Shown here: piece after piece, positions 1,392 to 62,260 of the stretch
Layout: the number at the start of each line of letters is the position of its first letter
How positions within the stretch are numbered: the stretch's first letter is position 1
Source: Cyanidioschyzon merolae
Taxonomy: Eukaryota
Direction: 5' to 3' (one strand)
NCBI GenBank assembly: GCA_000091205.1
Contig: AP006498.2
DNA length: 64,000 nucleotides
Position numbers and translations under genes: made by a program
The notes under the pieces: model-generated
Databases searched by the model: none
What the model was told of the DNA's origin: nothing
The model's input: the letters and a program-made list of their open reading frames with translations, nothing else

Positions 1392-1638
1392 TCTGCAGCT
1401 GTTTGTATATCACGAAAAGTGAACGAACCGCAGGTTGATGGGGTGCAACGAGCCTTCGTGAACCCGCGCTCGAGATGCTGCAGTTGACGCAGGCCGCTGG
1501 TGCATCGGGCCTCAGGCGTGGACACAGAGAATGGTGTACAGTTTGGGATTTTAATGGACACAAGTATACCACCCGGATAGCGATTCTCATCTGCGACATT
1601 CATTAACATATGGGTTTCCATGCTACTGCACGCTCTGA

Positions 1639-2229
1639 ATGCGCCCTTTTTACCGTCGTTTCCTACGCACTTGTTCGCTAAGGGTCCTTTTTTGCGTGGT
1701 TCGTGGCGTTCACTCGGACGGACACTCGTCCGCCGCTCGACGCCCTACTCCTTTCCGTATGAGAAACACGCCTGCAGAGCTAGCAGAGGCCGTCAGCACA
1801 GCCTGTGCAGCGCTAGAGAGGGAGTTTCTAGCACTCTCGGCGCTTCTCAGTCGTAATAGCGACCCGTTCGCAGAAGAGGTTCCGTATGAGCTCTTACACG
1901 AACAATACAACACGTGCAAAGAAATTTTGCGAAGGCTTCGAAGCATGTTGTTCGAGCAGATCTCCGAATCAGGAACACTTTACCAGCACATGCAGTACTT
2001 GTGGCTCGCGGAACAGCAACCAGAGGCAACCGGCAGCGCAGCGCTCGTCGCGCAGCGCTCGCGTCTGGAGCAGGTGCTTCGTGGGTTTCGATACGTAACT
2101 GGGGGCGCCAAACCACTAGCCTCTCATAATGTTCAGGAAGGATGGGATGCTTCTGGTACAGTCGAAGTGCACAGTAGTCGTCTCAGTGCCGCAGTGGCCG
2201 GTTCGCGTGCTGCAAACGCCCAGGGTTAG
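1639..2229 (+). CDS. Hypothetical protein (no recognisable domain); alternative start at Met 1759
   Basis: 196-aa uninterrupted ORF in GC-rich DNA; no motif recognised; could be spurious. Confidence 0.2.
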   Translation: MRPFYRRFLRTCSLRVLFCVVRGVHSDGHSSAARRPTPFRMRNTPAELAEAVSTACAALEREFLALSALLSRNSDPFAEEVPYELLHEQYNTCKEILRRLRSMLFEQISESGTLYQHMQYLWLAEQQPEATGSAALVAQRSRLEQVLRGFRYVTGGAKPLASHNVQEGWDASGTVEVHSSRLSAAVAGSRAANAQG

Positions 2230-3122
2230 CGTCTCGCCAAACGCCCTCCCGCGTGTACCGAACAAGGCTCCTGTTCATGTCTGGCTGCCTTTCCGGATAA
2301 TGCTGTCGTGCAGTGTGTTTTCATAGCGAACGCACAACGAGATAGGAACATGCCAGAGAATCGTCTAGTCGTAGTCGTACCTGATGGCCTGCCCCAGTGG
2401 ACCCACCAGAGAGGATACGGTGCGCACAGACAACAGACGATTCAGGGCTACCACGTAAACAGTAGGTGCAGGTTGCCCTTGTGCTGCACATTCCGTCACC
2501 CGTGTGCGTGGAGTCTATTTATCCCTGATTCTCGAAGCGTCCCGGACGCGTCAGCGTATTCTATTCCCCATACGCGGGACCTCACACAAGGCTTTATCAC
2601 GCGTCCGCAGAAAAAAGCTTTCACTAACTGCGACTGCAGAATGCATTGACGCTTTCATGATCGTAACAATAGCGCCGGAAGAAGTACACTCCAGAAACAG
2701 CACAGATACGAAAGCGAATCCCGTTTCAGGCCACAGTTGTCGCTGACGAGTGGCAATGTCAACACCTGGCTGCTCTCTGCCCGTTGCGCCGCGCCTATGC
2801 CGTTCTGCACGAAACTGAAACCGAGTCAAAGCAAGCCAGGCCCTGTGCACGGTGTACAGCGCTGCGACATGAAGGCACTTGCCCACAAAGCGCCTTGGGT
2901 CGGAGCCAGCGTTCTCGAGCTGCGCGCGCTCCTCGGTGCATTCAAGCTCTAGAAAAGCCCCTGCTTGGATCATATGGCAAGCCCGCACATGTCGTTGTCA
3001 TCAAGGTCATGCCTGTGTCAGTTTTGAGCTGTATGGAGAGCGCGCTTGCGAAACCGCTCAATTCATAGGGGATCGTTCTATTCCAGACGCGAACACGCCA
3101 TCTAGGTACCCGTCCCAGGATC

Positions 3123-5072
3123 CTACGCATTTCTGTAAACCAAGACATACGCGGCACGCGATAGAACGGTGCTTGCGGACACCATTTGCACATCCTGGTC
3201 ATCACACTGCCACCAGATCGCGTCGGCATCAACCGAACGAGTCAATCCCCGAGGGGCGTTTCGTGACTTGGACAACGACCATGTCGAGTTTGTACCGCTC
3301 GCCAGCACGTCTGCAATGTAGTGCCCGTTCGCCAAGTCCGTGCCCAGGTGTGTGATGACCGCCACCAAACGATACCGACGGGAACACGCCTCGCCGAGTT
3401 GCGCTTTTGGTACGGCCGCACTGAACCAGGATGCATTCAGAACGAACTGTGGCGGGAATGATAGCTCCTTGTGCAGCTTCTTTCCCTGACCTGTTCCGTC
3501 TGACGCCACGGAAAACCGTTTCAAGTGAATGATAAGCGCTTGCGGCAGGGGCGTATCCAGCGTGACGTGCTTCCGCAGCGGGTCAAGGTTGGCGGCTACG
3601 CGCGTTCTGGTCCGTGCACTGCTGTCGCGCTCATCGGGTGCTTCAAGGAACTCCGGTTCCATAAAGTAGCGGAAGGCGTCGTCCAATGTCCGAATCCGTT
3701 GGTCTTCGATATCCAAAGATAGCATGAGGAAAGGTTCACGAACCGCAGAGCGCTTAGCACCTGCTTTGCGCACCTCGCTCCGAAGCGCACCACCGAAAAT
3801 GGAAGTGATAAACGTCTTTCGCACTTGGTGCGTTCGAACAATAGCGCTACGTCCTCGTCGATCCACGGTTTCCCACTCGGTATCGCTGGTGGCATCCGAG
3901 TCGGTGAGCGAAGGCGAAGCGGCGCGCTCCAGCGAGGCCAGCTTGCTCTTTTCGCCGAGCAGGGATCGCAGTTCCAGCAACTCACTGTGCAATCCGTCCA
4001 ACATGATCATCAGTAGCTCCTGAGCGTCTTCCTGGTGACCCGAACCCACGGTAGAAGCTAATCGCTCGTTCTCCCAGAAATACGTTGGCCGTAGCATAGG
4101 TGCTGCGGCTCCGAAACGTCCTCGCTGGAGGCGCGTCTGCTGACATAACGCTTGCCACTCGTCGATGAGCCGAAGCCATCCAGCAACCAAATGGCAGTTG
4201 CACTTCTCCAAGAGATCCCGCTGAGTCGGGAGAAGCGCTCCAAGCGCAGTCCATGTTAAGCGGAATTCATCGATGGCCAGAAGCGCTTGCAGCACCGCAT
4301 TCAGGTAACACGAATTCCCGGTGTTCACAAAACCGGGTCGTCTCCAGTGAGGATCTATGGCAATCGATGATGCGGCTACACTCGGTGACGGCGTTCTGTC
4401 GTTGGACACAGGGCACCCGTATTCCAGCAGCTGCAAGAGTCGTTCGCTCATCTGAGCTGGAAGCCCCGTGAACAGCCTTCCTCGACGATCCGACCCGGTG
4501 GCCTGATCGGCCTCGTCTATTCGCTTTAGCAACTTGCTCTCAGTCGTCACACTTGACTGGTTACTTTCATGGGAAGCGCCAGGTGCATCGGCACGAGCTT
4601 CGCCGCTCACGACGGAAGCCCAACGTAGTCGCGGTGTGCCTGCTGACACCGGCTCCGGTGCCGCTCGTGGGGTGCTTTTCGGGCTCTCACTTGAACGCAG
4701 CGGTACCACGGGGCTATTGGAGTTCGAGCTGTGGACCACTTCCGCAGGTGCATCCTTCTTCAAAGGCGACAACGAAGGTGTTTCCGTTTGCGGCAAAGCG
4801 ACAGCTACTTGGCTCGGCGAAACGGCAAGCGTCGGCGTAGAAGAAGCGCTCCCCGAGCGCACCTTTACGGTGCCCGGGGCTTGATTCAGCTCTGGCTCCT
4901 GCTCACTCGTTGACTGTGATAAAACGGCTTCCGAACGTATGATGAGACTCGACCATTCACGCGCAGTTAGCTGGCCTAGGTACACGTGTGAAAACTGTGT
5001 CCAGTTTACACCTTTTCGCTCCATTCCGTCACCATGTAGGAAGGTCTCACACCTTGCCCGCACCCACGACAA
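3123..5072 (-). CDS. Ubiquitin carboxyl-terminal hydrolase (USP/UBP family, peptidase C19)
   Basis: 649-aa ORF; Cys-box GFVNTGNSCYLNAVLQALL and His-box GHYIADV; long Ser/Pro-rich low-complexity C-terminal half. Confidence 0.8.
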   Translation of the reverse strand: MSWVRARCETFLHGDGMERKGVNWTQFSHVYLGQLTAREWSSLIIRSEAVLSQSTSEQEPELNQAPGTVKVRSGSASSTPTLAVSPSQVAVALPQTETPSLSPLKKDAPAEVVHSSNSNSPVVPLRSSESPKSTPRAAPEPVSAGTPRLRWASVVSGEARADAPGASHESNQSSVTTESKLLKRIDEADQATGSDRRGRLFTGLPAQMSERLLQLLEYGCPVSNDRTPSPSVAASSIAIDPHWRRPGFVNTGNSCYLNAVLQALLAIDEFRLTWTALGALLPTQRDLLEKCNCHLVAGWLRLIDEWQALCQQTRLQRGRFGAAAPMLRPTYFWENERLASTVGSGHQEDAQELLMIMLDGLHSELLELRSLLGEKSKLASLERAASPSLTDSDATSDTEWETVDRRGRSAIVRTHQVRKTFITSIFGGALRSEVRKAGAKRSAVREPFLMLSLDIEDQRIRTLDDAFRYFMEPEFLEAPDERDSSARTRTRVAANLDPLRKHVTLDTPLPQALIIHLKRFSVASDGTGQGKKLHKELSFPPQFVLNASWFSAAVPKAQLGEACSRRYRLVAVITHLGTDLANGHYIADVLASGTNSTWSLSKSRNAPRGLTRSVDADAIWWQCDDQDVQMVSASTVLSRAAYVLVYRNA

Positions 5073-6946: not shown

Positions 6947-8130
6947 GGGCCTGCTTGGCGCTTCAGTGGAGCTCAAAGGTTCCATGTGTTGCCACACAAA
7001 CTTCACTAGCAGTGGAAGCCAGTGCGATGTTCAAAACTAAAGATTGTTCGAAAACCAGCGCAATCGCACCGTTGCTTGTCCAACAAGCGTCCTCGTTCAC
7101 GAGTACTTGTGCCGAAAGAAACTTGGCTGCGGCCTTATCGGATACGGGACTCGCACCCGTCGCAAACACTCTAAGAGGGAGCAAGCCCTCGGTCGCGTAT
7201 GATCCCAGTTGGCTCTCACACCCGTGACCCTTTCTTGGTTCGAAGAGCGCCTCTCAGTCCCAAGAAAAACTCGATCGCCCGCGAAGCAGAACAAAAGCGC
7301 CTTGAAGCACTCTCCGAAGAACAAGGAGAGCGTCTCCTGAAACGTTTGCCGCAGGATTGATGCGCCGACGGGTGTAGGGTCGGCTAGAGGCCCCGGTTTG
7401 CACACGATCCCCAATGAGATAGGGACAGTTTGGTAAATCAGTGACTTTTGTTGTAGATTATATGACAAGAGCTTCGCACTGCGTACGCTGCGCACTGGAG
7501 CAGCAAGCGAACGCTGTCCATGGACCTCCAAGGTACACGTTTGGACGCAACGCGTTCGCCGGGTGTCGGCTTACCTGCTGGTTGGTGTGGTGCAGCAATG
7601 CCTAAGGAATTTGACAAGTACCGAGATATCGTTTCAAAAAAGATGGATCGGGTGAATTTCCGTGCCCATGCACTGCGCTGAGCTTCATGCCGTAGGACGG
7701 CTCCTGATCTGACGGTAAACGCATTCACGTGGCATGCGCTGAACGCCCATCGCGGTATTTATCTACTTTGACAAGGGTTTGCACAGGAATACACGAACCA
7801 ATAGCTGTGCAGGTGCAGATAATCATTTAGATATTAAACTTGATCCACTGTTTCACCCTTACTATTCATGGGTAGAGGTATCGGCAACTGCGAAAGCAAA
7901 AATAATCTTTTGCAAACAAGGTTTTGTCCTCTATATCATTCACACAGTCAGGGATAGCTGCTTTGCAGGCTGCAAGAGCAGCCTCAGGCTGACGGTCCTC
8001 CCTAGACTCTGCAGATATATACTCGCCAGGGTTGCTTAAGGCAGTTGTGGCAACCGCGCTTCCCCGTGAAGGCAGCACGTCCGTCCGATACAGGCGATAC
8101 ACCCAAGTCAGTGTAGGATACAACCGGTCC

Positions 8131-9672
8131 TCTGATGTGGGCGTACATTCTAAAGTTTCGCTCTCTGTAAACCATCATCCACAATAGCATTTGCAGGGTT
8201 TTTTCTAACTCGTTTCCCACGTAGAATCCACTGGTCTCGCCTGCTCCTCCAGCTTCGTTACCATCACTCGACGGATGTTGATGGCACCAAGATCGTGCCT
8301 GCTACGCTGGCTCAGGTTTCGTCAACGCTTTCCATGCAAAAGGCGCAGGGTATCATCTAAGCTCCGCTTACCATTCGGATCTCCTTCGCGCGCAACCTCG
8401 GTACACTCTTTACGGCGGTGGCACATCACTTCGGTCATGTTTTCAAGCACGTGCATCAACTCGCCGCCGCGGAAGGCTGCTCTATGGCGCGTTGACGCCT
8501 GCTTCATCGCTTGGTTCATGCTCTGGACGAGTGCAGAAGGCATCGCTTGATGCGCGCCCCCGTCTTGGTGCTCGGTGCAGTACCATACGAGCATCCGCCT
8601 CTTCTGGGCGATGCGCTCGGCGAGTACATTGTCCGTTGCACGCCCAAACGCAGGCGGCTCTATTGGATCGAGGATCTGTGAAACGTCAGCTTTTCCTTGA
8701 TGAACCTATTACCTTGCAGAGAATCGAGGCTCAAACACACGCCGAGAAATTTCGTTGCGTCTACACTCTCATCGGGCAAAACGGTGATACACGCCCCGCA
8801 GGAAGCGATCGCTGCGATGGCTCAAGTCCGAGTCCAAGAACCTGCTCGATCCCCAGAGAAGAGACGTGAGCCTCTGGGAGCAAATCCCATGTGAGAAATC
8901 ATGCTGCTGCCGAATGCCATTCCATTTATATCCATACAGATATCATGACAGATAATCCAACGACTAGGTGTGAATCCGTAAGCCGTTGTTGCCGCTGCAC
9001 TTCGAATGTCAAGGCTCTAGACCTGAAATAAGGTTTGGAAAATCTCCATGCAGGAACAGAGCCAGCATCCCAGTGTTCCCTGTTTCGAGCACATTCTATC
9101 GTCGCCTTTGGAGTATTCCGCTCGACAAGTGCTGGTGCCTTGTGAGCGGGCGCTGCTCGCCGCATTGGACACAGACACGCCTAGCGTTGCTTGCTGACGT
9201 CACTGCTTCTGCTGCTGCAACTTGCGAACCGGGCAGCTGGAAGTACGCAAACTCGCCAACGACGAGAGGCGCTCTAGTGTTGGAAGCTCCGTGCACTGCA
9301 GAGCGCGATTGTCGCTTGCTACCCAGAACGCTTTTTCGGTAGCTGCGACGGCAGTAGCAGCAGCTGCTACTTCTGCCAAAAACCGCCGCCGGTTCGCAGC
9401 CACGCCATCGTTGCTGTGAACGGGTGTCGCTTTCGAGGTTGCTCGTGAAACTTGGGTACCGTTGGAAGGCGCGGGGTCTTTGGCATTGGACCTCACTGGA
9501 AGTGAAACGCGTTCTGGGTGTCGATTACCTAAAAACAAGAGGCCCGGAACCAGAGGCGTCCCTGCGTATCGGCTGTACGCGACGGACGTCCGATACCAGG
9601 TTTCAGCGCTTATACGTAGCGGACGGAGGGGACGCGTCTCAAAAGTCTTCAACTCGAAAGGAGCATAGTTTC
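8131..9672 (+). repeat. Dispersed repeat family copy A (about 1.55 kb, unclassified; possibly a non-autonomous TE or fragment of a larger element)
   Basis: Near-identical (inverted) to 44615-46185 and partially to 31530-32340; duplicated six-frame ORFs (e.g. MTPASSLGSCSGRVQKASL..., MLVWYCTEHQDGGAHQA...) appear in all copies; no TIRs or LTR ends found. Confidence 0.7.
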
Positions 9673-23788: not shown

Positions 23789-24989
23789 GGAGTCCGTTCA
23801 CACCCAGCGCTGGGTAGCTTAAGTCAACGAAGATTTGAATCACCTTTGCTGCGTGTATTCGAATGCTTATTCACAATGTACAGCTGGACGTTGAGATCAT
23901 GATGGTATGCACTGTATCGATCATCGACGAATTGCCGCTAGGATGTATTCTCTGGTAAATAGTGAAAGGAGGTCTACATTCTGCTTCGGGTCAGGCATAC
24001 AATAGTACTCAGATGGTTGAGTAACACAGAAAGAATCACGTAGATACGCTCCGTGCCGAAAACCGATTTGCTCGAAGCGCGCCTGCGGTTAATGGTATAA
24101 AAATGATCCGTTCATCATATTACGGAAAGCAAAAGCAACGATCCTAGCAACTACCAGTGTCTCTATTTCTCAATAGCTTGTTCGCGTTGTCCTGAAAACA
24201 CTGGTATACAATCGCATAAAAAGTCCTGGTTCACAAACGGCAATCTTCCGCCGAAATCTCAACGACAGCGTCCTTGGAAAGTCAATATCGATATGAAGCA
24301 CAGAGACGACGATTTGTTTTTTCAGTTAATGAGAGCTTCTTCAGACGAAACGGCCGGAGTGCGGATGGGTAGTCGCGGAGCGTGGCGTCCGTTGTATGCG
24401 CTATCGAACTCTTAGAGAACGAGTATATCATCATCGGTCTAGCTGTAGTGGAATCATTTAGCGGCCTCCAATTCGCGTATACAGAAGGCTCATACAACAG
24501 CGTTGACTTCGTCGAATCAATAAAGGTGTTGTCTCTGACGTCTGGCCACGACCTTCTACTAGACAACGTGGTAGTTCACATTTCCCCTTGCGTCGAGCTT
24601 TTGACGATTCTAATTAGGTAGAGCTGCTTTTGACTCCTCCGTTCTCTCCGCGTTTCAACTGCATCGCAGGAATGTCTTCTATCGTGAAACGAAATGATCG
24701 CTCTAGTGGGCCAATCGATGATGCGTTCAGCACACAGTGAAACACCCGGGCACATGACGTTGTTCTTCCGCCAGTCCTTCATCCTCCGGGAAGGTCCTCG
24801 CTTAAGGGTATCAAGCAGCGCGTTCATTTTTTGAAGAAACTAAAAATCCCAGGGATGAGCTGGGGTTTACTCATCAGAAGATCGAGATGGAGAAAAGCCA
24901 GCGAAGCGCTCCGGCGATAGAAGAGCACGGGGAGCTGATCGAGCAGCAAATGGCACAGACGGCACAAGTTCGAGGACTACTTGCATTGG

Positions 24990-25312
24990 TGGGTTCAACA
25001 ACGGCAAGAAACGCATGGAGTTTGTGAACCGAGACTTTAACGCCGCTATCGATATCAGGAGATGTGCGGTGCTGGAGACGAGACCTCCAGAATAGACAAG
25101 AGTGAACTTTGTTGGACAGCCTCCAAAAATTGAACTATATGAGAAATAATTGGAACCAGTAGCTCGTGGCCGGTCGAAAATGGCTGGGAGGCGTCTGCAC
25201 ATCAGCTGGAGACGCTGTGTCTAGGGCGCGGTTTCTCGCCAATACTGTGCACGGCCAACGGCGACGTTCGACTTCTGAGGCGAGTTTGGTAGTGGTGGTA
25301 TTATGTGGTGTT
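24990..25312 (+). mobile_element. Solo 3'-terminal fragment of the Fanzor/TnpB-type element (last about 30 codons plus conserved non-coding right end)
   Basis: Encodes ...[29 protein letters not shown]; the following about 220 bp align with 40650-40872 (gtggccggtc.aaaa..gctgggaggcgtctgcac...ggagacg.c.tgtctagggcg...gttcgactt...). Confidence 0.6.
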
Positions 25313-27099
25313 TCGTGACTGGACGGTGTGCTCCACTTTGGGGGGTTAACACAAACAGCACTTCGGTGACAGCTCGGTCTCGATGGAGGACGGCTGTCTG
25401 CGGCGGCCAGCAGCAGAGGTGCACAAGACGCACAAAGCTGGCATCGAGGCGTCCCTGCCGGGCTAGCGCTAGTGACCCGAACTTCTGGCGAGACGTGGCG
25501 CGCTCAGTGTCCGAGCAGGGCGAGCTGGCGACTTCGCGAGCTCCTGTGCGTCGAGAGCGACCTCCTCCGCAATGGGTGGCGCCGCCGCCCGGCTTTGAAC
25601 TCGATACGAGCGGCGAAAGCAGTTCGACTTGGGCTTCATGGCGCGCGGCGGCAGAGGCAGCGCAAGCCGAGCAAGAGGCGGTGCAAGAGCGGCTTGAGCG
25701 TGGCGAACCTGTGCGTGATATGACCGCTGAACGAAACTTCTGGCGGAGCGCAGCGGCTGAACTAGGCGCACCGTTGGACCCCGGCAGAACGGCAGCCGAG
25801 CTACGCACTGCAGCAGGCGGGTTGGCGGAGCGTCCTTCGGAGCATAATCGCAGCGAAGAGATTGGGAGCATCGATTCGAACATTCCTGAATCGGATGAGG
25901 AGTGGGACCCCGACACCTCCTGGATGCAAATGTATGCGTCAGACGCTGTTGAATTCGTTTCGGGAACCGAATCTGCTGATGATAATCTTCAAGGGACACT
26001 TTGGGGCGCCGCTCTGGGATCCGAGCAAGCAGCACGCGAACGTTCATCCACATCCTTGCAGTCGTTATCCGCAGAATGGGACACGAAGGAGCGCATTCCT
26101 GATTCCGGGGCAGAAGCTGCAGACGAGGAGGAAACCTTGGAGCCGCGCGATCCGAAGAAGGAGACAGCATTCTGGCGGGGTGCGGCCCAGGAGCTGCTTG
26201 GGGCATCCACGGGAGCTACGTCGGATGCGTTCGCGACTCGCTCGACCACGTCGCACAGCGCAGACGGGAGTGCCACGCAGGACTCCGAAGAGGAAACCTG
26301 GGAGCCGCGCGATCCGAAGAAGGAGACAGCATTCTGGCGGGGTGCGGCCCAGGAGCTGCTTGGGGCATCCACGGGAGCTACGTCGGATGCGTTCGCGACT
26401 CGCTCGACCACGTCGCACAGCGCAGACGGGAGTGCCACGCAGGACTCCGAAGAGGAAACCTGGGAGCCGCGCGATCCGAAGAAGGAGACAGCATTCTGGC
26501 GGGGTGCGGCCCAGGAGCTGCTTGGGGCATCCACGGGAGCTACGTCGGATGCGTTCGCGACTCGCTCGACCACGTCGCACAGCGCAGACGGGAGTGCCAC
26601 GCAGGACTCCGAAGAGGAAACCTGGGAGCCGCGCGATCCGAAGAAGGAGACAGCATTCTGGCGGGGTGCGGCTCAAGACATCATCGAGAGCCTTCCGACA
26701 CAAATCGAACTCGGTGTGGATGCACAGTCAAGCGCCAGCACTCCCGCCGTTCCCGATGCGCATGCCGGAACTGGTGATCCCGACGTTACAGCCGAAGAGC
26801 CCGTAGGCCCAGCTGAAGCCTGGGCTGCCTGGCGTGCCGCCCGAGCTTCTTCTAAGAACGTGTCCGCTTTACCCGCTCCTGTGGCTGAGACGCACCCAGA
26901 ACCTCTTTCTGAAACAGAGATCTGGATTCAGTGGCGAGAACAGCAAAGAAAAACCTGGGCAGGAGCCCTCAACGACCTGAACCGTAACCGTCCGCGAGAA
27001 CAGCAAGTTGCGCGACCCGAGAAAAGCACCGTTGATCGCTGGCGCCATGTTGCCGCAGAACTATCACAAGACAGCCCACAAAGCGAGGAGAACTCATAA
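25303..27099 (+). CDS. Repeat-containing acidic protein with reiterated FWR motifs; true start uncertain (first codons overlap the TE fragment end)
   Basis: 598-aa ORF; motifs NFWRDVA, NFWRSAAAELGAP, AFWRGAAQELLGAS x4, EAWAAWRAA, DRWRHVAAEL; contains 3.35 tandem copies of a 54-aa (162-bp) unit. Confidence 0.45.
   Translation: MWCFVTGRCAPLWGVNTNSTSVTARSRWRTAVCGGQQQRCTRRTKLASRRPCRASASDPNFWRDVARSVSEQGELATSRAPVRRERPPPQWVAPPPGFELDTSGESSSTWASWRAAAEAAQAEQEAVQERLERGEPVRDMTAERNFWRSAAAELGAPLDPGRTAAELRTAAGGLAERPSEHNRSEEIGSIDSNIPESDEEWDPDTSWMQMYASDAVEFVSGTESADDNLQGTLWGAALGSEQAARERSSTSLQSLSAEWDTKERIPDSGAEAADEEETLEPRDPKKETAFWRGAAQELLGASTGATSDAFATRSTTSHSADGSATQDSEEETWEPRDPKKETAFWRGAAQELLGASTGATSDAFATRSTTSHSADGSATQDSEEETWEPRDPKKETAFWRGAAQELLGASTGATSDAFATRSTTSHSADGSATQDSEEETWEPRDPKKETAFWRGAAQDIIESLPTQIELGVDAQSSASTPAVPDAHAGTGDPDVTAEEPVGPAEAWAAWRAARASSKNVSALPAPVAETHPEPLSETEIWIQWREQQRKTWAGALNDLNRNRPREQQVARPEKSTVDRWRHVAAELSQDSPQSEENS
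26125..26670 (+). repeat. 162-bp tandem repeat x3.35 (in-frame, inside CDS); copies 2-4 identical
   Basis: Unit starts at 26125, 26287, 26449 and 26611 (gaagaggaaacctgggagccgcgcgatccgaagaaggagacagcattctggcgg...). Confidence 0.85.
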
Positions 27100-30714: not shown

Positions 30715-31529
30715 GCGCAGTTTTCCGCTATTGAAACCCCGGAGTACGCTTTAGACGAAACAGGCTTGAGAAATTGAGTTTCCACTCGCAATGCGTACAG
30801 CGCAGTCCAGATCAGGCTTTCCTACTGGGCAGCTGCCTGGCACTATACATGCAGCAGGAAGCTATGCCAAAAACGTTCTATGAGGCTACTTTCCGCGCTG
30901 GCGCGGTGTCGAGGCGGTGTCCAGCTGTCCGTAATATTCCTAGTTGTACTGTTTTCATCGGAGCCGCTGCTTGGCCTGAGCCACGCTAATGTCAGAAAAA
31001 TCGTACACCGACTATTCACTATGTTCCTAACTTTCATATTTTCCAGCTTTTTCGGAGTTGAAGACTATCAACATTCCAAGTGCAGCATCCAAGACTTGCC
31101 CACTCAAGCGTCGTTTCGGGTTTTCGGTCGTCTTTTCCGAGTGGTTGCCTCGAAGCTTCGCCGCTAGTATTCAAGACAACACCGGAATCAAGTTGATCCG
31201 CCATGCCCACGGTCAAGGTTTCTTAGAATTACAGGACCCATAACCCAATATATACATGCATGCTTCCAATTCTCTCCTTTTCTAACGTGCAGCATGCTCA
31301 AAGCACGCGTTCTCCGAGTTTTCGATCTTTCTTTCTCAAGTTGAACGGTGAAGACACCAACTCGTGTCGCTTGATGTATAAGCGAAATGAATCGACATTG
31401 TCCCTTGACGCTCTGTTCACAAGCACATCCAAAAAGTTAATTCAAATTATTTTCTCAAACAATCAATTCCGTTCGAAAGAAACATCCTTCTTCCGACGTG
31501 GGTATCGACGTAATCGCATTCCACAAAAG

Positions 31530-32340
31530 TATGATTTCTCACATGGGATTTGCTCCCAGAGGCTCACGTCTCTTCTCTGGGGATCGAGCAGGTTCTTGGA
31601 CTCGGACTTGAGCCATCGCAGCGATCGCTTCCTGCGGGGCGTGTATCACCGTTTTGCCCGATGAGAGTGTAGACGCAACGAAATTTCTCGGCGTGTGTTT
31701 GAGCCTCGATTCTCTGCAAGGTAATAGGTTCATCAAGGAAAAGCTGACGTTTCACATATCCTCGATCCAATAGAGCCGCCTGCGTTTGGGCGTGCAACGG
31801 ACAATGTACTCGCCGAGCGCATCGCCCAGAAGAGGCGGATGCTCGTATGGTACTGCACCGAGCACCAAGACGGGGGCGCGCATCAAGCGATGCCTTCTGC
31901 ACTCGTCCAGAGCATGAACCAAGCGATGAAGCAGGCGTCAACGCGCCATAGAGCAGCCTTCCGCGGCGGCGAGTTGATGCACGTGCTTGAAAACATGACC
32001 GAAGTGATGTGCCACCGCCGTAAAGGGTGTACCGAGGTTGCGCGCGAAGGAGATCCGAATGGTAAGCGGAGCTTAGATGATACCCTGCGCCTTTTGCATG
32101 GAAAGCGTTGACGAAGCCTGAACCAGCGTAGCAGGCACGATCTTGGTGCCATCAACATCTGTCGAGTGATGGTGACGAAGCTGGAGGAGCAGGCGAGACC
32201 AGTGGATTCTACGTGGGAAACGAGTTAGAAAAAACCCTGCAAATGCTATTGTGGATAATGGGTTACAGAGAGCGAAACTTTAGAATGTACGCCCTTGCTG
32301 GATGGCCCGTTCCATTTGATGCTGACATAGGTGTAAGCTG
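31530..32340 (-). repeat. Dispersed repeat family copy B (truncated, about 0.8 kb)
   Basis: Aligns to 8131-8900 of copy A in inverted orientation; shares the 30-bp terminal extension (ttgctggatggcccgt.ccatttgatgc) with copy C. Confidence 0.7.
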
Positions 32341-37222: not shown

Positions 37223-37499
37223 GACACCCCCAAGTCTTTGACCTCGCTGGTACGAGCGGCTCGAGCCGGTTCAACTGTTCGCCCCCTAGAGCCCAGACGC
37301 CACTAACAGTTCGGCTCCTGGTGGTAAAAGATTGCTTGACTTTGCTGAGCCCCGAACAGCACTGTATCTCCCAACAGCGCAGTAGATAGCTCGCATAAGA
37401 ACGGGTATGTGTCGTTGGAGCGCAAGTGCGTCCAAGGTTTCATTTGGTGTCCGGTTCGCCATCGTCGCACCTGCGCTGCAGTACTCTGGCGCTTGCAGT

Positions 37500-37731
37500 G
37501 CATTTGAAAACGGTACATTGAGCATTGGAGTTGCCCTAGATCAGTGCACTCTTGGGCACAGAGCAGGGACACGCTTCGACTGCGGCTCGTGTTCCATGTG
37601 GATGCAGCGCATTTGAAAACGGTACATTGAACACTGGAGTTGCCCTAGATCAGTGCACTCTTGGGCACAGAGCAGGGACACGCTTCGACTGCGGCTCGTG
37701 TTCCATGTGGATGCAGTGCATTTGAAAACGT
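37500..37731. repeat. 109-bp tandem duplication (2 copies plus 13-bp partial), non-coding, about 97% identical
   Basis: Unit gcatttgaaaacggtacattga.ca.tggagttgccctagatcagtgcactcttgggcacagagcagggacacgcttcgactgcggctcgtgttccatgtggatgcag starts at 37500, 37609 and 37718. Confidence 0.85.
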
Positions 37732-38586
37732 TTCCAATGTATTCTCGAGCGGCGGAGCTCGTCGTGTTGGGATCGTTCCCAACGGCTCGGGGCTCGATGC
37801 AGTCGTTGGAAAGCGTGACGTTCGTGCACGCGTCCGCACCGAAACTGAAAATAGGGATGACCTAAACGAAAATTGACGCTCTCTCATGTAATCCAAATTC
37901 GGAGCTGAATTCAAAGACCAGAACCGAATGCTTCTGAACCAGCAGCTACAGGGCATTGGAGGAAACGCACATTCGAGCGACGCACAAGAACCCCGGACAC
38001 AACCCCGTTCGCCGCGATCCACGTATGATCCGTACCCCAGTTCGAACGGATGCCCTATGTGGTACGGCAACGCCGTTCTGTCTCCGTGACGCAACTGTAC
38101 CGAAGGTAAAGACGCTATTGCGGATGACTAGGGCAGGCATTAGGTGTGCGATAGAACGCATGAAACGACCAGAAAATCCGAGAAGAAGTTTCGGTAATGT
38201 GACTTGGGAGTAGGGTGTTTGATGGATACTTCAAAGCGCACTGAAAAACAAATAAAAAAGAAAGAAAAGAAAAAGCGCACAGTCGGAGAACGCTGGCCTA
38301 AGTAAACGTCTTGTCAATGAAAAAAGAATCCCGCTCGGTGAGCGCATCAGGGAGATCGGGCAGTCAACTGACAAGACGCGCATGTCGCCGTTGAAGAGAA
38401 AAGCGATCCTGATCAGGTGCGTGTTCTACCGGAACAAGTTGGATTTCCGTTGGAGTTTTACAAAAAAGCAGTTTTTCATTTCATTTGTGCTTCAAACCTC
38501 AAACAAGTCTAGTCCAGAGTTTTTTCGCAGTATATAACAAAAGCGTTCGAAGAGCGTTCTTTTTCGAAAAAATAAAAAGGAAAGCT

Positions 38587-40649
38587 ATGAAAAGCAAGTC
38601 GACGATCCTGGAAGCCCAGTTTCGCCGGCTGCCAGAAAAAAAACAGAAAAACAGTGCCAAGTCCAGAAGAAAAGGAAGAGAAGAAGAACCGAAAGGGGGA
38701 TACCCTACGTCGAAGGCCGCAAGAAAGGCAACTGCACGACGAGAAGGCGGTGAAAGCCTTTCTTCTTGGACATATCAAGGATCCCTGCAGGGAAAAGTTG
38801 CGAGACGCTATCGGAAAACTTGTCGACTCGTACTCCAAGAGTATTGTCAAGGCGTCGTCAGGACCGATGCATTTGGCCAGGGAGACGTATCGCGACGTGA
38901 CGCACATGGAAACAGTCGAGATGCCGGACGAGTCGTTCGACATGACCCTTATTCGATACCTGATGCTTGGTACAGAAAAAGCGCAGAAGGAAAATGAGCT
39001 TGTGCATGCCCTCAACGAAAACTTCGCGGAATTCTGCTTCGAGGGTACCAGAGACGGGGGTGACTCGGATATTTACGACTATGGGGCGATGAAGTACCTC
39101 ACGAATCTGAAGAACCGTTTGACAACGAACCTCGAACGTTTCATGACACGCGCAGTGTTTGCACTCTACCCGGGCCAATCTCGCAATGGAAAATGGACGA
39201 TTATCAGTGGCATCACGAGAGATCGCAAGCGTGAAGATGAGGTCGAATTTGTCGATAAGAAGGCATCTAATGAGAGCACAAATGAAGCTTCTGTAATCCG
39301 TGCGGTTATACAAGAGCACCGCGCAGTTTTGGGCTGGCGAATCCAGCAGACAAGCTATCAGAGTTGAAAAAAGATACGGAGACATACTATCGCCTCATCC
39401 TGCGCGATTTCGTGTTTTTGGATCGAGAATTCGAACGCAAGGCGGAGATGAAGCTGAGCGAGGAAAAAATGAAGAGTGGGAGAGACGGAAGGCTTTCCTA
39501 ATGGGGAAGCGCTTCAACATGGTTCCAGTGTGCAACATCAAGTCACATTTTGTGACTATCGACTCCAGCGTCCTTCATGGCATCATGAGGGAGATCAGTC
39601 CGGAGTTCAATGTTAGCAGGGAGGACTTCAACGGTGAAAACCGGGAGACGTACTGGAAGAATATCTTCGACTTCAAGCGTCTCAAAGCCAGCAAGCAAAA
39701 GGTATTCACTGAGATGATCGAAACCAATGGAGTAGACATGTGTATACACTATCGGCGGTTGAAGAGAGATCGTCCAGTCCTGCCCTCAGCGAAGCATGAA
39801 GATGAGAAGGGGGCGGATCCTGCGACGCAGGAAGTGCAGGATAACGACTTCGTCGCTGGCGCGGACTCCGGAAACACAAATATCATAACCATCGCAGCAC
39901 CGAAGCTTGCGGAAGATGGTGCTGACGGCAACTTACGTCAGAAAGACATGCGTCCTTTAAGGTTCTCGAGAGCGAGATACTATTGAGAATCTGGAATCAT
40001 GAATGCGAGGAAGAAAACTGAGAAGTGGAATTCAGGAATGAAGGATCACCTGGAAGCTTTGAGCGAGGTGACGAGCCGAGGAGCAGACTTTGAAGCTTTT
40101 CGGGAGTTCATGGATGTTCGCGTTGCTCATTGGGATGCGCTGTAGGAGGAGTATACAAAGCCCCGGTCGCCTCGTTTGCGAATGAATTCGTATTGTGGGA
40201 AGCAGCGGGCGTTCGCGAATTTTTCAATGAGTTGAGTGCCCTGAAGGAGGATGAAAATCAGAGGCTCGTAGTAGCGTACGGAGCAGGGCACTGGAAGACC
40301 CAAAAAGGGTGTACACCAGCTCCAACGACGAGAGCGTACAAGGAGTGCGCAAGGCGTCTCGTTACGATACCTGTAGATGAGTTCCGGACATCGTATACAC
40401 ACCATGAACTGGGTTGTACACTTCAGAGGGTGGAGATGGAAAAGTGCCAGCGGAGCCCCGAGGCTATAAAAAAGTACGGACCGCTCACAGAAGAGCAAAT
40501 GGAAAGGAGAGCGAATGTTCGAGGGCCTGCTTGCATCAGTAAGTACAACCAGTGATGGTAAGAACCGGAAAGAGTTTGTGAACCGAGACTTTAACGCCGC
40601 TATGAATATAAGGAGATGTGCGGTGCTGGAGAACAGACCTCCAGAGTAG
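38587..40649 (+). CDS. Fanzor1 / TnpB-like RNA-guided endonuclease (RuvC-like), reading frame interrupted at least 3 times (short introns or frameshifts; possibly a pseudogene)
   Basis: Segments: 38587/38654-39367 (Lys/Arg-rich NLS-like N-terminus), 39300-39986 (contains RuvC-I ...[17 protein letters not shown] at about 39858), 40130-40555 (contains VVAYGAGHW and a Cys/His-rich segment [13 protein letters not shown]...EKCQRS...PACIS), 40560-40649 (Ruv[28 protein letters not shown], the NRDxNAAxNI hallmark of TnpB/Fanzor/Cas12). Summed about 640 aa. Confidence 0.6.
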
Positions 40650-40872
40650 ACAAGAGGGTATCTTGTTGGACAATCACTCAAGGTGGAACCATATGAGAAA
40701 AAGATGGAAGCAGTAGTAGGTGGCCGGTCCAAAAAGACTGGGAGGCGTCTGCACCTCGGTTGGAGACGTCTTGTCTAGGGCGGCTCGGTCGCCACTACTG
40801 TACACCGCTGCCGTCGTTCGACTTAGAACGGCGTTTGTTGTTGGTGTGTGTGTAATCGGTTGTTTGAAAGGC
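40560..40872 (+). ncRNA. Candidate omega-RNA (guide RNA scaffold) region at the 3' end of the Fanzor ORF and right end of the element
   Basis: By analogy with TnpB/Fanzor loci, where the omega-RNA overlaps the ORF 3' end and runs to the right end. This segment is the part conserved in the otherwise non-coding solo fragment at 25.0-25.3k. Confidence 0.3.
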
Positions 40873-40902
40873 ACAGCAGTCGCTGAGCACTGCTGGAATC
40901 CG

Positions 40903-42783
40903 ATGGGGTTTGCTGCAACGCCAGTTGCACGAGTGCTTTCTGTAAAAAAGCCGAGCTCGACGACGGCGAGACCGCGAAGCGTTTGGACGCCGTCGTTTAG
41001 GACACGGAAGAAAAGACTCGCGCCTCTTGTGGCAACGAACTCGCGCAAGACCAGCGCGGGGACGGGTATTCCGCCAGCATCGGGTCCACGGCCGAGGCAA
41101 GTATGGGAAGCACTATCGGCACGGGAGGCTGCGTTCTTGGCGGTCGAGTGTTCTCTGACTCAGGGTCATGATGTCGCCGAAGACGTGGACGGCAGTGATG
41201 CGCTCGACGGGAGGCCAAGCCAAGGGAGCGGCGGCGTTGGAGGCGCTCTCAGTAACAGGTACCTTCTGACGCAGCTAGCGCTTTGGAGCGAAAAGCACAA
41301 GCCCAGTCGCGTAGAATACGCACTGGCGAAGATTATCGCTTTTAATGCAGTTCGACAACGGGCGCTCTTTGACTATGTGCTGCAGACCAACATCGTTCGC
41401 GATCGGAGCGCCATCGACCAAGAGCCGCACCGCATCAAGTCGGAGGGCATGCACCTATCAATAGCGCAACGTGCACTACTGCACACGGCCCTGGCACAGT
41501 ACGCTTTCATGGAACGTGTTCCCGTCTACACGATTGTTTTTAGTACAGTGGAGATAGCGAAGACTTATTTTGGGCAACGCTTCGCTGCATTCGCCAATGC
41601 AATTTTGCGCAATCTAGTTCGGTACGGAGAGAAGTACGCTGCCGACTTGGAAAGCCGCCGTCCAGCATCCTACATCGTGCGGCCGCTTCCGTTTCCCGCC
41701 GACGCCCTCGATGTGCGCTACTCCTATCCCGCAGTGTTTGCGAGCCGAGTTTTTGGCCAGCTTTTGAATCGGAAACGCCTGGTGGCCTTCCTGGAGGCCG
41801 GAAACATGACCCCGCAAACTTTTCTGCGCGTTCCCCGCCAGCATGCCCAGCATGAAGATTTGAAAATGGCCATTGAAAGGCGCTTATTGGTCCCTTGGTC
41901 GGACCAAGATTCAACGGAAACAGTGAGTAGACCGTGGATCATTTACCGCGTCGACTTGCAGTGCGCTGGAGAAGATCCAGGTGCGGCCTTACCGCTCACA
42001 TTGCCGAGCGCAAATGGTACGGGCTGGGCAGATGATCCGGCCAATGTCCTCACGAGAAGCCTTTTTCAAAGACTGCTGCAGCACTTTATAGCTCAAAACG
42101 TAACACAAGCAGAGCATACGTTTCTTCTCTGCGAACAGTTACGCCAACGCTGGGACAAGGAAAGACGGATCGCGCGGGTCCTGGACCTCTGCACCGCACC
42201 TGGAGGCAAGCTTACAGCAGTTTTTGAGTACCTGCAGTATAGCGACCTCGGCGACGCGCAGACTGAATACATAGGCATTGATCTGAGCGATCAACGCATT
42301 CATATGGTCCACGAGAATGTCGACAAGACGCCGGGTATGCGCGAAAGTCGCGTTTTTGTCGGCGTTGCCCGTGGCGAGTCCTTTGTTGATTGCAGAGCGG
42401 GCAACATCTTGCGCAGTGAAGACGAGCGCGCTGTCAGTCCGTGTTTCGACCTTGTGATCGCGGACGTACCGTGTACGAATTCGGGGGTCTTGAATCGGCG
42501 ACCTGAAGCCCGTTGGAGACTCGACGAGCAGCATTTTGCGTCTTCGGTACCACGCTTGGTTTCGCTCCAGGCGAGTCTTTTGAATCGGGCGTGCCTTCTA
42601 TCTCGCTCTGCGGTGTTCTACATGACTTGCTCAGTTTTGCATGCGGAAGGACGCGATCTTGTGCGGTCAGTTCTCGAAAATCACCGTGACTTTGAACTTG
42701 TTTGGGATCACCTGACCTACACGGATGCCGCTGGACGGGATGGAGGCTATGCAGCCATGCTTTGGCGACGCCCGTCTCATTGA
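40903..42783 (+). CDS. RsmB/Sun-family rRNA (cytosine-C5) methyltransferase with N-terminal NusB-like domain (bacterial-type; likely organelle-targeted)
   Basis: Six-frame ORF starts at 40720 inside the TE right end; Met 40903 starts an S/T/R-rich transit-like peptide. NusB-like IIAFNAVRQRALFDYVLQ; MTase motifs LDLCTAPGGKL, LVIADVPCTNSGVLNRRPEARW, FYMTCSVLHAEG. Confidence 0.75.
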   Translation: MGFAATPVARVLSVKKPSSTTARPRSVWTPSFRTRKKRLAPLVATNSRKTSAGTGIPPASGPRPRQVWEALSAREAAFLAVECSLTQGHDVAEDVDGSDALDGRPSQGSGGVGGALSNRYLLTQLALWSEKHKPSRVEYALAKIIAFNAVRQRALFDYVLQTNIVRDRSAIDQEPHRIKSEGMHLSIAQRALLHTALAQYAFMERVPVYTIVFSTVEIAKTYFGQRFAAFANAILRNLVRYGEKYAADLESRRPASYIVRPLPFPADALDVRYSYPAVFASRVFGQLLNRKRLVAFLEAGNMTPQTFLRVPRQHAQHEDLKMAIERRLLVPWSDQDSTETVSRPWIIYRVDLQCAGEDPGAALPLTLPSANGTGWADDPANVLTRSLFQRLLQHFIAQNVTQAEHTFLLCEQLRQRWDKERRIARVLDLCTAPGGKLTAVFEYLQYSDLGDAQTEYIGIDLSDQRIHMVHENVDKTPGMRESRVFVGVARGESFVDCRAGNILRSEDERAVSPCFDLVIADVPCTNSGVLNRRPEARWRLDEQHFASSVPRLVSLQASLLNRACLLSRSAVFYMTCSVLHAEGRDLVRSVLENHRDFELVWDHLTYTDAAGRDGGYAAMLWRRPSH

Positions 42784-43838: not shown

Positions 43839-44528
43839 TTATAAACTGAAGAAACCCATGCCGTTACATTCGCGGCAAGGCCGCCCAAGCCCAGTGCCTT
43901 GGCACGGATAGCACGGTACCTCGTCGCCCAGGAAACCTTTCATTTTGCAGGAGCCGTTGCACATGAGACAAACGCTCCGGCGCTTACCGTGGCAGGCACC
44001 ACACTGGATCACTGGCCCGTACTGTTTCCGAAGCTGGCGACGCAATCTTTGTCGAAGAGTCGCTGCCGCTGGATCCGCGGCCGAATTCACTAGAAACCGA
44101 ATTGCTTCGCGAACTTCCTCTGGTGACAGGTACCCAGGTTCTTTGGATGCATCTCGACCGAAACCTTTTGCGGCCTGCATCCGCAACAGCGGCCTCGCGC
44201 GGCTGAAGCGCACGCCACAGGCTCCTTGTAGTCTGCTCCGTTGCATGCGCCCAGCGGTGCTGCAGTATCTGCTTTGTAGACATGTGCATACGGGCTCCAT
44301 GAACTGAAGAACAACCGAACAGCGGAATGTGGAGCCCAGCCTCGGAGAAGGTTCCATGTTTGGATGATAAACAAAAAGCTCCTGTGTTGACATTTTGGCG
44401 CACGAGTGATACCTGGGAATGAATCGACCCAGGTGGCTTCGAACGAGTTTCCTCTGGTCCGAAGAACCGTTCTCTAGTTTCTCACGTGCCACAGTATCAG
44501 TCTTCAAGGAAAGTTTCGATTCAATCAA
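43839..44528 (-). CDS. DnaJ-like zinc-finger protein (four CxxCxGxG repeats; BSD2/PSA2/LQY1-like plastid assembly-factor type); start uncertain
   Basis: C-terminus CGACHGKR...CLMCNGSC...CYPCQGTG...CRECNGMG; upstream part basic, with no other domain. Confidence 0.5.
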   Translation of the reverse strand: MIESKLSLKTDTVAREKLENGSSDQRKLVRSHLGRFIPRYHSCAKMSTQELFVYHPNMEPSPRLGSTFRCSVVLQFMEPVCTCLQSRYCSTAGRMQRSRLQGACGVRFSRARPLLRMQAAKGFGRDASKEPGYLSPEEVREAIRFLVNSAADPAAATLRQRLRRQLRKQYGPVIQCGACHGKRRSVCLMCNGSCKMKGFLGDEVPCYPCQGTGLGRPCRECNGMGFFSL

Positions 44529-44614
44529 GGGGGCAAAGCGGCCTGGGATGCGTACTCCCGTAAAACGAGAAAAACAAGGTAGTCGCTCAGTTCTGTCTAG
44601 CAGGGAACGGAACG

Positions 44615-46185
44615 TTAAATCTATGCTCCTTTCGAGTAGAAGACTTTTGAGACGCGTCCCCTCCGTCCGCTACGTATAAGCGCTGAAAACTGGTATCGGA
44701 CGTCCGTCGCGTACAGCCGATACGCAGGGACGCCTCTGGTTCCGGGCCTCTTGTTTTTAGGTAATCGACACCCAGAACGCGTTTCACTTCCAGTGAGGTC
44801 CAATGCCAAAGACCCCGCGCCTTCCAACGGTACCCAAGTTTCACGAGCAACCTCGAAAGCGACACCCGTTCACAGCAACGATGGCGTGGCTGCGAACCGG
44901 CGGCGGTTTTTGGCAGAAGTAGCAGCTGCTGCTACTGCCGTCGCAGCTACCGAAAAAGCGTTCTGGGTGGCAAGCGACAATCGCGCTCTGCAGTGCACGG
45001 AGCTTCCAACACTAGAGCGCCTCTCGTCGTTGGCGAGTTTGCGTACTTCCAGCTGCCCGGTTCGCAAGTTGCAGCAGCAGAAGCAGTGACGTCAGCAAGC
45101 AACGCTAGGCGTGTCTGTGTCCAATGCGGCGAGCAGCGCCTGCTCGCAAGGCACCAGCACTTGTCGAGCGGAATACTCCAAAGGCGACGATAGAATGTGC
45201 TCGAAACAGGGAACACTGGGATGCTGGTTCTGTTCCTGCATGGAGATTTTCCAAACCTTATTTCAGGTCTAGAGCCTTGACATTCGAAGTGCAGCAGCAA
45301 CAACGGCTTACGGATTCACACCTAGTCGTTGGATTATCTGTCATGATATCTGTATGGATATAAATGGAATGGCATTCGGCAGCAGCATGATTTCTCACAT
45401 GGGATTTGCTCCCAGAGGCTCACGTCTCTTCTCTGGGGATCGAGCAGGTTCTTGGACTCGGACTTGAGCCATCGCAGCGATCGTTTCCTGCGGGGGCGTG
45501 TATCACCGTTTTGCCCGATGAGAGTGTAGACGCAACGAAATTTCTCGGCGTGTGTTTGAGCCTCGATTCTCTGCAAGGTAATAGGTTCATCAAGGAAAAG
45601 CTGACGTTTCACAGATCCTCGATCCAATAGAGCCGCCTGCGTTTGGGCGTGCAACGGACAATGTACTCGCCGAGCGTATCGCCCAGAAGAGGCGGATGCT
45701 CGTATGGTACTGCACCGAGCACCAAGACGGGGGCGCGCATCAAGCGATGCCTTCTGCACTCGTCCAGAGCATGAACCAAGCGATGAAGCAGGCGTCAACG
45801 CGCCATAGAGCAGCCTTCCGCGGCGGCGAGTTGATGCACGTGCTTGAAAACATGACCGAAGTGATGTGCCACCGCCGTAGAGGGTGTACCGAGGTTGCGC
45901 GCGAAGGAGATCCGAATGGTAAGCGGAGCTTAGATGATACCCTGCGCCTTTTGCATGGAAAGCGTTGACGAAACCTGAGCCAGCGTAGCAGGCACGATCT
46001 TGGTGCCATCAACATCTGTCGAGTGATGGTGACGAAGCTGGAGGAGCAGGCGAGACCAGTGGATTCTACGTGGGAAACGAGTTAGAAAAAACCCTGCAAA
46101 TGCTATTGTGGATAATGGGTTACAGAGAGCGAAACTTTAGAATGTACGCCCTTGCTGGATGGCCCGTACCATTTGATGCCGTCTT
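44615..46185 (-). repeat. Dispersed repeat family copy C (full length, inverted relative to copy A)
   Basis: Reverse-complement alignment with 8131-9672 over about 1.55 kb at high identity; same duplicated ORFs (44587..45303, 45334..45798, 45696..45968, 45740..46015). Confidence 0.75.
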
Positions 46186-46357
46186 CGATGTATGATCAGC
46201 ACAAGGATTCGCAGCGTTTGCAAAATCGAATTCGATTCAATAAAGTCTTTTCTTTATCCGTCTCGATTACGGGCTCTTCACCAGTCGACCGGAACAAGTC
46301 GAGAACCTCAGTTTTCAAGAAAGTTGCCCTCACTTGCGCCCACGAATGCTGATTTAA

Positions 46358-60699: not shown

Positions 60700-60975
60700 G
60701 CATTATGTCAGTGGCACAAAAAAGTCCTACGCCCAAGGGGCTATAGACGTGCCCGCACTCGCTGACGCCTCCACACCTTTTTTCACCGGCCGACTGCTAT
60801 CGGTCCCAGCTTCTCCTTGTGGACGTCGAGCGTCAGAGGCTGCCCAACAACGTTGAATCGCGTCAACTCTTTGGGTCTCGTGTTCAGCACTGCACATCTC
60901 TTGATGTTGGTGGCAGCCCTCAAGTCTGGATTCACAAACTCCATGCGTTTCTTGCTGCTGCTTGTCATCACCAAT
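60700..60975 (-). mobile_element. Diverged 3'-end fragment of the Fanzor/TnpB-type element (minus strand)
   Basis: ORF 60783..60974 encodes ...KKRMEFVNPDLRAATNIKRCAVLNTRPKELTRFNVVGQP, a degenerate version of [37 protein letters not shown]. Confidence 0.5.
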
Positions 60976-62149: not shown

Positions 62150-62260
62150 TTCGAGAAGCGGCGAGAGTCGCATGGAGTTTGCGGTCCGAACTTCAACGAC
62201 CTCGTGGATATCAGACGACGCATGGTGCAGAAGAGGATACCCGACGAGCTGAGGTGATCT
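62150..62260 (+). mobile_element. Decayed fragment of the same element 3' end
   Basis: catggagtttgcggtccgaacttcaacgacctcgtggatatcagacgacgcatggtgcag aligns at nucleotide level with catggagtttgtgaaccgagactttaacgccgctatcgatatcaggagatgtgcggtgctggag; motif no longer encoded. Confidence 0.4.

Follow-up and report, generated by a model that had tools for sequence, protein, structure and literature searches.

A family of decayed Fanzor1 elements in Cyanidioschyzon merolae and the candidate guide-RNA module at their right end

In IS200/IS605 elements such as ISDra2, the right end encodes the omega-RNA (reRNA) of TnpB, which overlaps the nuclease ORF at its 3′ end. IS200/IS605 elements have single-strand hairpin ends and no inverted repeats, and they include ORF-less derivatives that keep the ends (PATEs). 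In Fanzor elements the omega-RNA or fRNA lies between the end of the ORF and the right end of the element, and it may overlap the ORF (PMC10432273; PMC10530073). One example is Spu-1 of Spizellomyces punctatus (Saito et al. 2023), which has a 75-nt scaffold, 30-nt terminal inverted repeats and the sequence CA immediately 5′ of its left end; the same genome contains Spu-1 ‘ghost’ elements that have no ORF and keep the ends, including an omega-RNA-like right end (PMC10432273). Jiang et al. 2023 described the fRNA regions of the mimivirus ApmFNuc and the Chlamydomonas CrFNuc-1, for which the RNA was sequenced from the purified complexes, and there are 20 scattered, stand-alone copies of the fRNA region in the C. 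reinhardtii genome (PMC10530073).

We analyzed a window of 64,000 nucleotides, the whole stretch of C. merolae contig AP006498.2 presented here, and find in it four copies (A to D; Table 1) of an element that resembles each of these systems in part. Like Spu-1, it is a single-ORF Fanzor1 element with a conserved non-coding stretch from the end of the ORF to the right end, it is present in many copies most of which are partial, and copies A, C and D are short derivatives that, like the Spu-1 ghosts, have both ends and an omega-RNA-like right end. It differs from Spu-1 in having a module of ~200 nt rather than a 75-nt scaffold, in having a hairpin in two versions at the right end, and in being far more decayed (~80% nucleotide identity between copies, and an intact ORF in one of 80 related loci), and the RNA is here predicted from sequence. 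A conserved non-coding region of ~200 nt that leads from the end of the ORF to the element boundary, with conservation that reaches into the coding region, is also seen in ApmFNuc and CrFNuc-1, and the additional right-end copies in the window are reminiscent of the extra fRNA copies in C. reinhardtii. However, ApmFNuc belongs to Fanzor2 and resides in an element of the IS607 type that has inverted repeats, and for both ApmFNuc and CrFNuc-1 the RNA is known from purified complexes, whereas the RNA here is predicted from the DNA. The likeness to the TnpB elements of the IS200/IS605 group lies in the candidate guide RNA at the right end and its overlap with the 3′ part of the ORF, the hairpin end in place of inverted repeats and the ORF-less derivatives, although the protein groups with eukaryotic Fanzor1, no TnpA gene was seen and there is no match in Rfam.

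Table 1. Features of the Fanzor1-related element copies in the 64,000-nucleotide window.
Feature	Coordinates	Strand	Description
Copy A	24662-25300	+	~640-nt internal-deletion derivative: 5′ part, last ~80 ORF codons, 3′ module
Copy A ORF remnant	24855-25095	+	HQKIEMEKSQRS...VRGLLALV, frame change, RuvC-III motif, TAG at 25093-25095 (codon x)
Copy A 3′ module	25096-25300	+	Candidate omega-RNA scaffold region, decayed
Copy B	38328-40850	+	Full-length pseudogenised Fanzor1 element
Copy B codon x	40647-40649	+	TAG, hypervariable junction codon
Copy B 3′ module	40650-40850	+	Second TAG at 40776-40778; predicted long-range helix around two hairpins
Copy B terminal hairpin	40802-40843	+	Type I apical stem cgttcga / agaacg
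Copy C	60566-61301	-	Old short-form (internally deleted) element, 5′ part and 3′ part
Copy D	61830-62558	+	Second short-form element, head-to-head with copy C

The four copies are 65-82% alike. Alignment within the window matches 24855-25274 with 40404-40824 at 75.5% identity over 425 nt, and within this segment 25003-25228 and 40557-40782 align without gaps at 82%. The third copy, on the minus strand, spans 60761-60985 in its 3′ portion and aligns both with copy A (24999-25123 vs 60836-60960, 78%) and with copy B (40560-40752 vs 60953-60761, 67%). The fourth is recognizable near 62107-62289 (61985-62289 in the longer alignment); 62107-62241 matches copy A at 24951-25085 (71% over 136 nt), and 61985-62289 matches copy C at 61130-60826 (65% over 308 nt, E 3e-10). 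A right-end profile made from 40 related 3′ ends has hits at 40630-40849, 25076-25302 and 60761-60881 (E 2e-70 to 5e-10), so chance is excluded as the source of the repeat. The first-pass annotation had described a right-end module present as four copies in 64 kb and persisting as solo fragments, and it is correct as to the repeat and the two more diverged copies although not as to their solo status (see below). It had also described about 220 bp after the stop in copy A as aligned to 40650-40872; the block extends ~197 nt past the TAG and ends sharply at ~25300 and ~40845. Finally, copy A was thought to retain the last ~30 codons only, and it has ~80 codons of the ORF, beginning at 24855. In its 3′ module there is a TAA in frame at +18 codons, as well as a conserved block (tcgccaatactgtgcac) at 25236-25252.

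A scan of metagenome contigs identified 80 related loci. Near-identical sequences represent the same locus from several samples and were removed, and 54 right ends were aligned. Between the RuvC-III motif and a point ~197 nt past the TAG of the window copies, conservation stays at 80-90%; farther on the sequence is random-like, and this drop places the right boundary of the element at ~40845 in copy B and at ~25300 in copy A. The ~197 nt following the TAG are common to 50 or more metagenomic copies. The family is near to a star radiation of decayed copies, and there are just two clusters with at least three members. We also looked for recently transposed pairs that would give the exact right boundary, and all pairs with at least 95% identity share their flanks and are one locus from different samples.

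The left end is less sharply defined. Family homology in copy B reaches its left limit at 38328-38351, although the true terminus may be further left, at ~38042. Directly upstream of copy B is a repeat (repeat X; 38042-38325 and further left) that recurs, in both orientations, at many related loci; it is situated there either ~400 nt ahead of the nuclease element or downstream of it, and it may belong to a larger carrier element or mark a preferred target. Next to repeat X, on its upstream side, is a tandem duplication of 109 nt (37494-37711, 97% identity). At the apparent left end, CGCTCGGTGAGCG is preceded by A (19/24), T (14), C (14) and G (18) in flanks with no other resemblance to one another, a possible TAM-like motif comparable to the CA of Spu-1. 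Farther upstream, the copies form several groups that each have additional sequence in common, and because this sequence differs between groups above the common left boundary, the position of the true left terminus is uncertain. In a comparison of the left-end consensus with the reverse complement of the right end, the best local alignment is of 10-11 nt, and no target-site duplications were identified. The 30-nt terminal inverted repeats of Spu-1 (a feature of that subgroup and not of all Fanzor1 carriers) have no counterpart here, and the missing inverted repeats and target-site duplications also set the element apart from MITE-like elements.

We note several other features of the surrounding sequence. 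The listed 687-aa ORF at 40720-42783 has a GTG start inside the 3′ module of copy B; its real start is probably a later ATG, at ~40903, and a gene caller could wrongly extend such a gene into a transposon remnant. The ORF at 25303-27099 starts with an ATG that directly abuts the right edge of copy A, and it contains a tandem repeat (26124-26678) with a 162-nt period and 231-nt overlapping units in three copies that are 98-99% identical. There is also a much younger repeat of 0.8-1.5 kb, present three times (8098-9671, 31499-32335 and 44618-46151; 96-99% identity, once inverted), and no convincing ORF was found in its copy at 44500-46300.

The protein encoded by these elements can be assigned with the help of its metagenomic relatives. 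The reconstructed protein of copy B is 75-85% identical to metagenomic proteins and has 250 close homologues in JGI metagenomes, and an exhaustive profile search identified 1361 relatives. A profile of 44 diverse full-length relatives (A5), including proteins 75-80% identical to copy B, matches three Fanzor1 proteins of solved structure, from Parasitella (9cf0, E 5.9e-19), Spizellomyces (SpuFz1; 8gkh, E 6.6e-14) and Guillardia (9cer, E 7.8e-9). The catalytic motifs DPGR, DEFRT and NRD..NAA are aligned in the matches to all three, and the RuvC-like triad D318/E490/D559 is invariant across the 44 relatives. The RuvC-III motif NRDFNAA is present in both copy A and copy B, and aligns with NRD..NAA..NI of the solved proteins. 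On the strength of these profile matches we assign the element family to Fanzor1, the eukaryotic TnpB-like RNA-guided nucleases, and the earlier recognition of a Fanzor/TnpB-type element is borne out. The deep profile alone succeeded, and searches of the PDB with a single sequence and with a shallow profile gave no match. Pfam searches gave nothing significant for the ORF pieces in the window, the close homologues or the protein of locus L020; a sub-threshold match to Cas12f1-like_TNB was obtained with a window peptide (E 0.11) and with one of ten distant relatives (E 0.002). An AlphaFold model built from a shallow alignment has a pLDDT of 37.7. Alone among the 80 related loci, L020 contains an intact nuclease ORF (906-3149, 747 aa).

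Two further observations concern the relatives. First, there is a coding tandem repeat of variable number, with a unit of ~75 nt, just upstream of RuvC-I both in the window (~39790-39865) and at related loci (element positions ~1462-1537). Second, a distant relative from a brine metagenome (P0122; L081 541-1449), on a contig that ends 32 nt past the gene, directly follows a DDE_3 transposase gene of the Tc1/mariner type; in the loci that we inspected, the close relatives have no DDE_3 neighbour of this type.

There is no intact nuclease ORF in any of the four window copies. The ORF remnants of copy B (38654-40649) are in three frames, with three frame changes needed to read them and two in-frame stops, and copies C and D are without the middle of the ORF. 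The short copies had been seen as solo 3′ fragments, but all three contain a 5′ part as well as a 3′ part. In copy A, the segment 24662-24855 matches 7941-8131 of locus L012 (76.7% over 197 nt, E 7e-36), which is itself a short element, and it also matches copy D; copy A is thus an internal-deletion derivative. Copies C and D are derivatives of ~730 nt, and in copy C the 5′ part is evident from the alignment of 61174-61126 with copy B 38594-38642 (84%), with a score for the copy C 5′ alignment of 106 against a shuffled maximum of 34. Short-form relatives of C and D are present at L011, L029 and L012, and this recurrence indicates that the short form itself was mobilised. In having 5′ and 3′ parts with the middle of the ORF gone, copies A, C and D are similar to MITE-like internal-deletion derivatives. 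A preferential retention of the RNA-encoding end had been proposed, and internal deletion that spares both ends is a better explanation; truncated copies do mostly retain the 3′ end in our census, in a count that is biased by the choice of loci.

The degree of decay also bears on the suggestion that the family is active or recently active, which we do not support given the 65-82% likeness of the copies, the frameshifts and stops that make copy B a pseudogene, the single intact ORF among 80 loci and the condition of copy A. The predicted fold of the copy A module (-63.4 kcal/mol, z -0.07) is no better than that of shuffled sequence, and a covariance model of the terminal hairpin has no match in copy A at E≤1. 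Copy A has lost both the predicted fold and the terminal hairpin and looks dead, and the family as a whole is old and mostly dead.

What does the 3′ module represent? The stretch at issue forms the element's right end, arranged as in the published Fanzor systems (PMC10432273; PMC10530073), and the proposal that this is where TnpB and Fanzor systems encode the omega-RNA agrees with its position. We think it probable that the module is DNA for the scaffold of a guide RNA (omega/fRNA), of which copy A is a dead relic; the reading draws on its position, its length and its pattern of constraint, and by analogy with the characterised elements the module would be transcribed, would adopt an internal fold and would take part in RNA-guided activity. 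The last part of the nuclease ORF, with the RuvC-III motif NRDFNAA, is followed by the ~200-nt module up to the right boundary. In the mechanism that we envisage for active relatives, transcription of the RNA would occur together with the ORF or from its 3′ end; the RNA would fold into a compact scaffold finishing in the terminal hairpin; it would run a few nucleotides into the flanking DNA, which would be the guide, and the complex of nuclease and RNA would then cut sites that are free of the element.

The constraint is at the level of nucleotides, without codon periodicity. In the ORF the non-consensus fraction is 0.200 at 4-fold sites and 0.076 at codon positions 1+2. For the 126 nt after the junction codon (codon x, the position of the TAG in the window copies) it is 0.135, which is below the 4-fold sites (P<5e-5), and the comparison of conservation upstream and downstream of the stop that was suggested at the outset therefore reveals no simple decay with distance. 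Five conserved blocks have values of 0.06-0.09 (P≤1.3e-3), including GAGGCGTCTGCAC and TCGCCACTACTGTACAC (0.07-0.09), and TCGCCACTACTGTACAC is situated beyond any stop; the last 60 nt of the module average 0.227, like neutral sites. Variants shared by three or more copies fall at the three codon positions in numbers of 100, 95 and 239 in the ORF and of 33, 35 and 37 in the 126 nt after codon x. The corresponding numbers of synonymous and non-synonymous variants are 219/211 and 37/64, and the synonymous share after codon x (35%) is like that of a pseudo-frame past the second stop (34%), compared with 50% in the ORF. Singleton variants are flat over codon positions and are abundant everywhere. 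Pooling all variation gives a tail that is weakly codon-like (0.148/0.110/0.174, P 0.03), and the residues after codon x, TR..F.GQPL, are conserved in distant relatives, with GQPL recurring in P0122, so part of the constraint near codon x may act on protein. Overall the pattern is consistent with a functional non-coding element that overlaps a dispensable C-terminal tail.

The module of copy B (40648-40850) folds with -80.1 kcal/mol (z -3.77) in the sense orientation and -55.6 kcal/mol (z -2.21) in antisense, and the predicted sense fold has a long-range helix of 40711-40723 (cagtagtaggtgg) with 40789-40800 (tcgccactactg) that encloses two hairpins. RNAalifold with 40 cleaned copies predicts a long-range helix of CAGTAGT.GGTGG with TCGCCACTACTG, also with two hairpins inside, and returns an empty structure with all 53 copies. 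Covariation among right ends had been recommended as a check, and for the internal helices it does not exceed that of shuffles (84.6% of cells paired in both; score 0.122 vs 0.123), with a power that is low because the family is a near-star radiation of decayed copies. The terminal hairpin is better supported, and in 44 of 52 copies its sense strand has a more stable fold than the antisense strand (P 1.6e-8). Two apical stems, CGTTCGA-CTT-TCGAACG and CGTTTTTC-TTTT-GAAAGACG, occur at one and the same place, and these alternatives account for the outcome of an arm-swap test in which hairpins with their own arms have -19.7 kcal/mol and those with swapped arms -17.0 kcal/mol (P<2e-4). The compensated switch is confined to the apical stem, and there is no covariation in the outer arms (P 0.09). 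Covariance model R1 matches the terminal hairpin of copy B with 42.8 bits (E 6e-11). A type-I hairpin covariance model shows which copies have the hairpin but is of no use for counting compensated pairs, because type-II stems are placed in the loop as insertions. There is no match to Rfam 15 in the whole window at the gathering score, and none in 40400-40900 at E≤10.

Alternatively, the module could be conserved as the right end at the DNA level, a cis-acting signal with a single-strand terminal hairpin that the mobilising enzyme recognizes, like the ends of IS200/IS605 elements or Helitrons. In favour of this, a strand-specific hairpin is present at the very end of the element, the ends lack a terminal inverted repeat, the truncated copies mostly retain the 3′ end (with the bias in the census noted above), and the internal-deletion derivatives that keep their ends have spread to several loci. 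However, the constrained stretch of ~200 nt beginning at the end of the ORF greatly exceeds the usual length of end-recognition sites, we saw no transposase gene beside the nuclease ORF among the 80 loci (with ORF lists viewed for a few of them), and characterised Fanzor and TnpB elements have their guide-RNA gene in this region. We regard a purely cis-acting role as rather unlikely, and note that a signal of this type is compatible with a guide RNA encoded in the same DNA.

A different question is raised by codon x, which follows RPPE and is TAG in 12 of the 54 non-redundant copies, the other common codons being TTG (11), TGG (9), TCG (7) and CTG (6). In most of the non-TAG copies the frame is open for 43 codons more, to a second widely shared TAG (25222-25224 in copy A, 40776-40778 in copy B), and the description of the 3′ stretch as non-coding accordingly applies to the window copies and not to most of the others. 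No site inside the element varies more than the middle base of codon x (T16 A12 G12 C8 in 48 copies; 1.96 bits), which is as random as the flanking DNA, with neighbouring bases that are 80-95% conserved, and even closely related copies differ between stop, Leu, Trp and Ser. This variability is odd. Nearly all distant relatives and the solved Fanzor1 proteins have Leu or Phe at codon x and then [TS]R, and in L020 the intact ORF continues past both codon x (ATG) and the second stop (CAA) until the element itself ends. Together with the TAG in 12 of 54 copies, these observations show that the border between ORF and non-coding sequence is particular to some of the copies.

One could argue from this that the first ~130 nt past the TAG are a C-terminal coding tail of the nuclease, conserved for the sake of the protein, and that the window copies carry a nonsense mutation. 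A sense codon is present at x in 42 of 54 copies, with most of them in frame for the 43 codons, the one intact ORF reads through, and the recurrence of GQPL and the weak codon-like variability in the tail point in the same direction. Against this, the shared variants are flat over codon positions with a synonymous share no different from that of the pseudo-frame, TAG is found at x in many related copies, and the conserved blocks continue past the second stop. Moreover, the solved Fanzor1 proteins end 2-5 residues past the motif and the distant relatives ~20 residues past it, so a tail of 43 codons is no feature of the family. We consider a coding tail very doubtful as an account of the module. 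It is similarly improbable that the switching at the junction codon reflects a conflict between translation of the C-terminal tail and the folding or processing of an overlapping guide RNA, in a eukaryotic Fanzor1 lineage that would have no inverted repeats and would end, like IS200/IS605, in single-strand ends with a sense hairpin.

Finally, the module could be without function, with the apparent conservation reflecting a common ancestor and a limited time of divergence. The near-star radiation of decayed copies, the flat and abundant singleton variants, the neutral average of the last 60 nt and the absence of covariation are all in keeping with this. However, the 126 nt after codon x are below the 4-fold sites and the five blocks are lower still, and a folding bias towards the sense strand is unexpected from neutral sequence; a lack of function thus seems to us to have little chance of being correct, and we favour the guide-RNA scaffold. 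Two other candidates were considered. Helitrons have a 5′ TC, a 3′ CTRR and a hairpin ~10 nt before the 3′ end, and although a hairpin is present here, the shared 3′ termini (GATGGTGC, GTTGGTGT, TTCCAGGGGT, GCTGGYG etc.) are not CTRR, so a Helitron was rejected. Reassignment of TAG as a sense codon was set aside, with standard-code ORFs of up to 1407 aa being common in the window.

The position of the guide RNA at the right end is already known in Fanzor, and the element described here is a further Fanzor1 family. For annotation of the C. merolae sequence, the segments 24662-25300, 38328-40850, 60566-61301 and 61830-62558 should be regarded as the remains of dead transposons, and neither as genes nor as regulatory elements. 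Should the module prove to be a guide-RNA gene, the family would add a Fanzor1 lineage with an unusually long scaffold (~200 nt) and a hairpin at its right end, and the 747-aa protein of L020, as the sole intact copy, would be a candidate compact RNA-guided nuclease to test.
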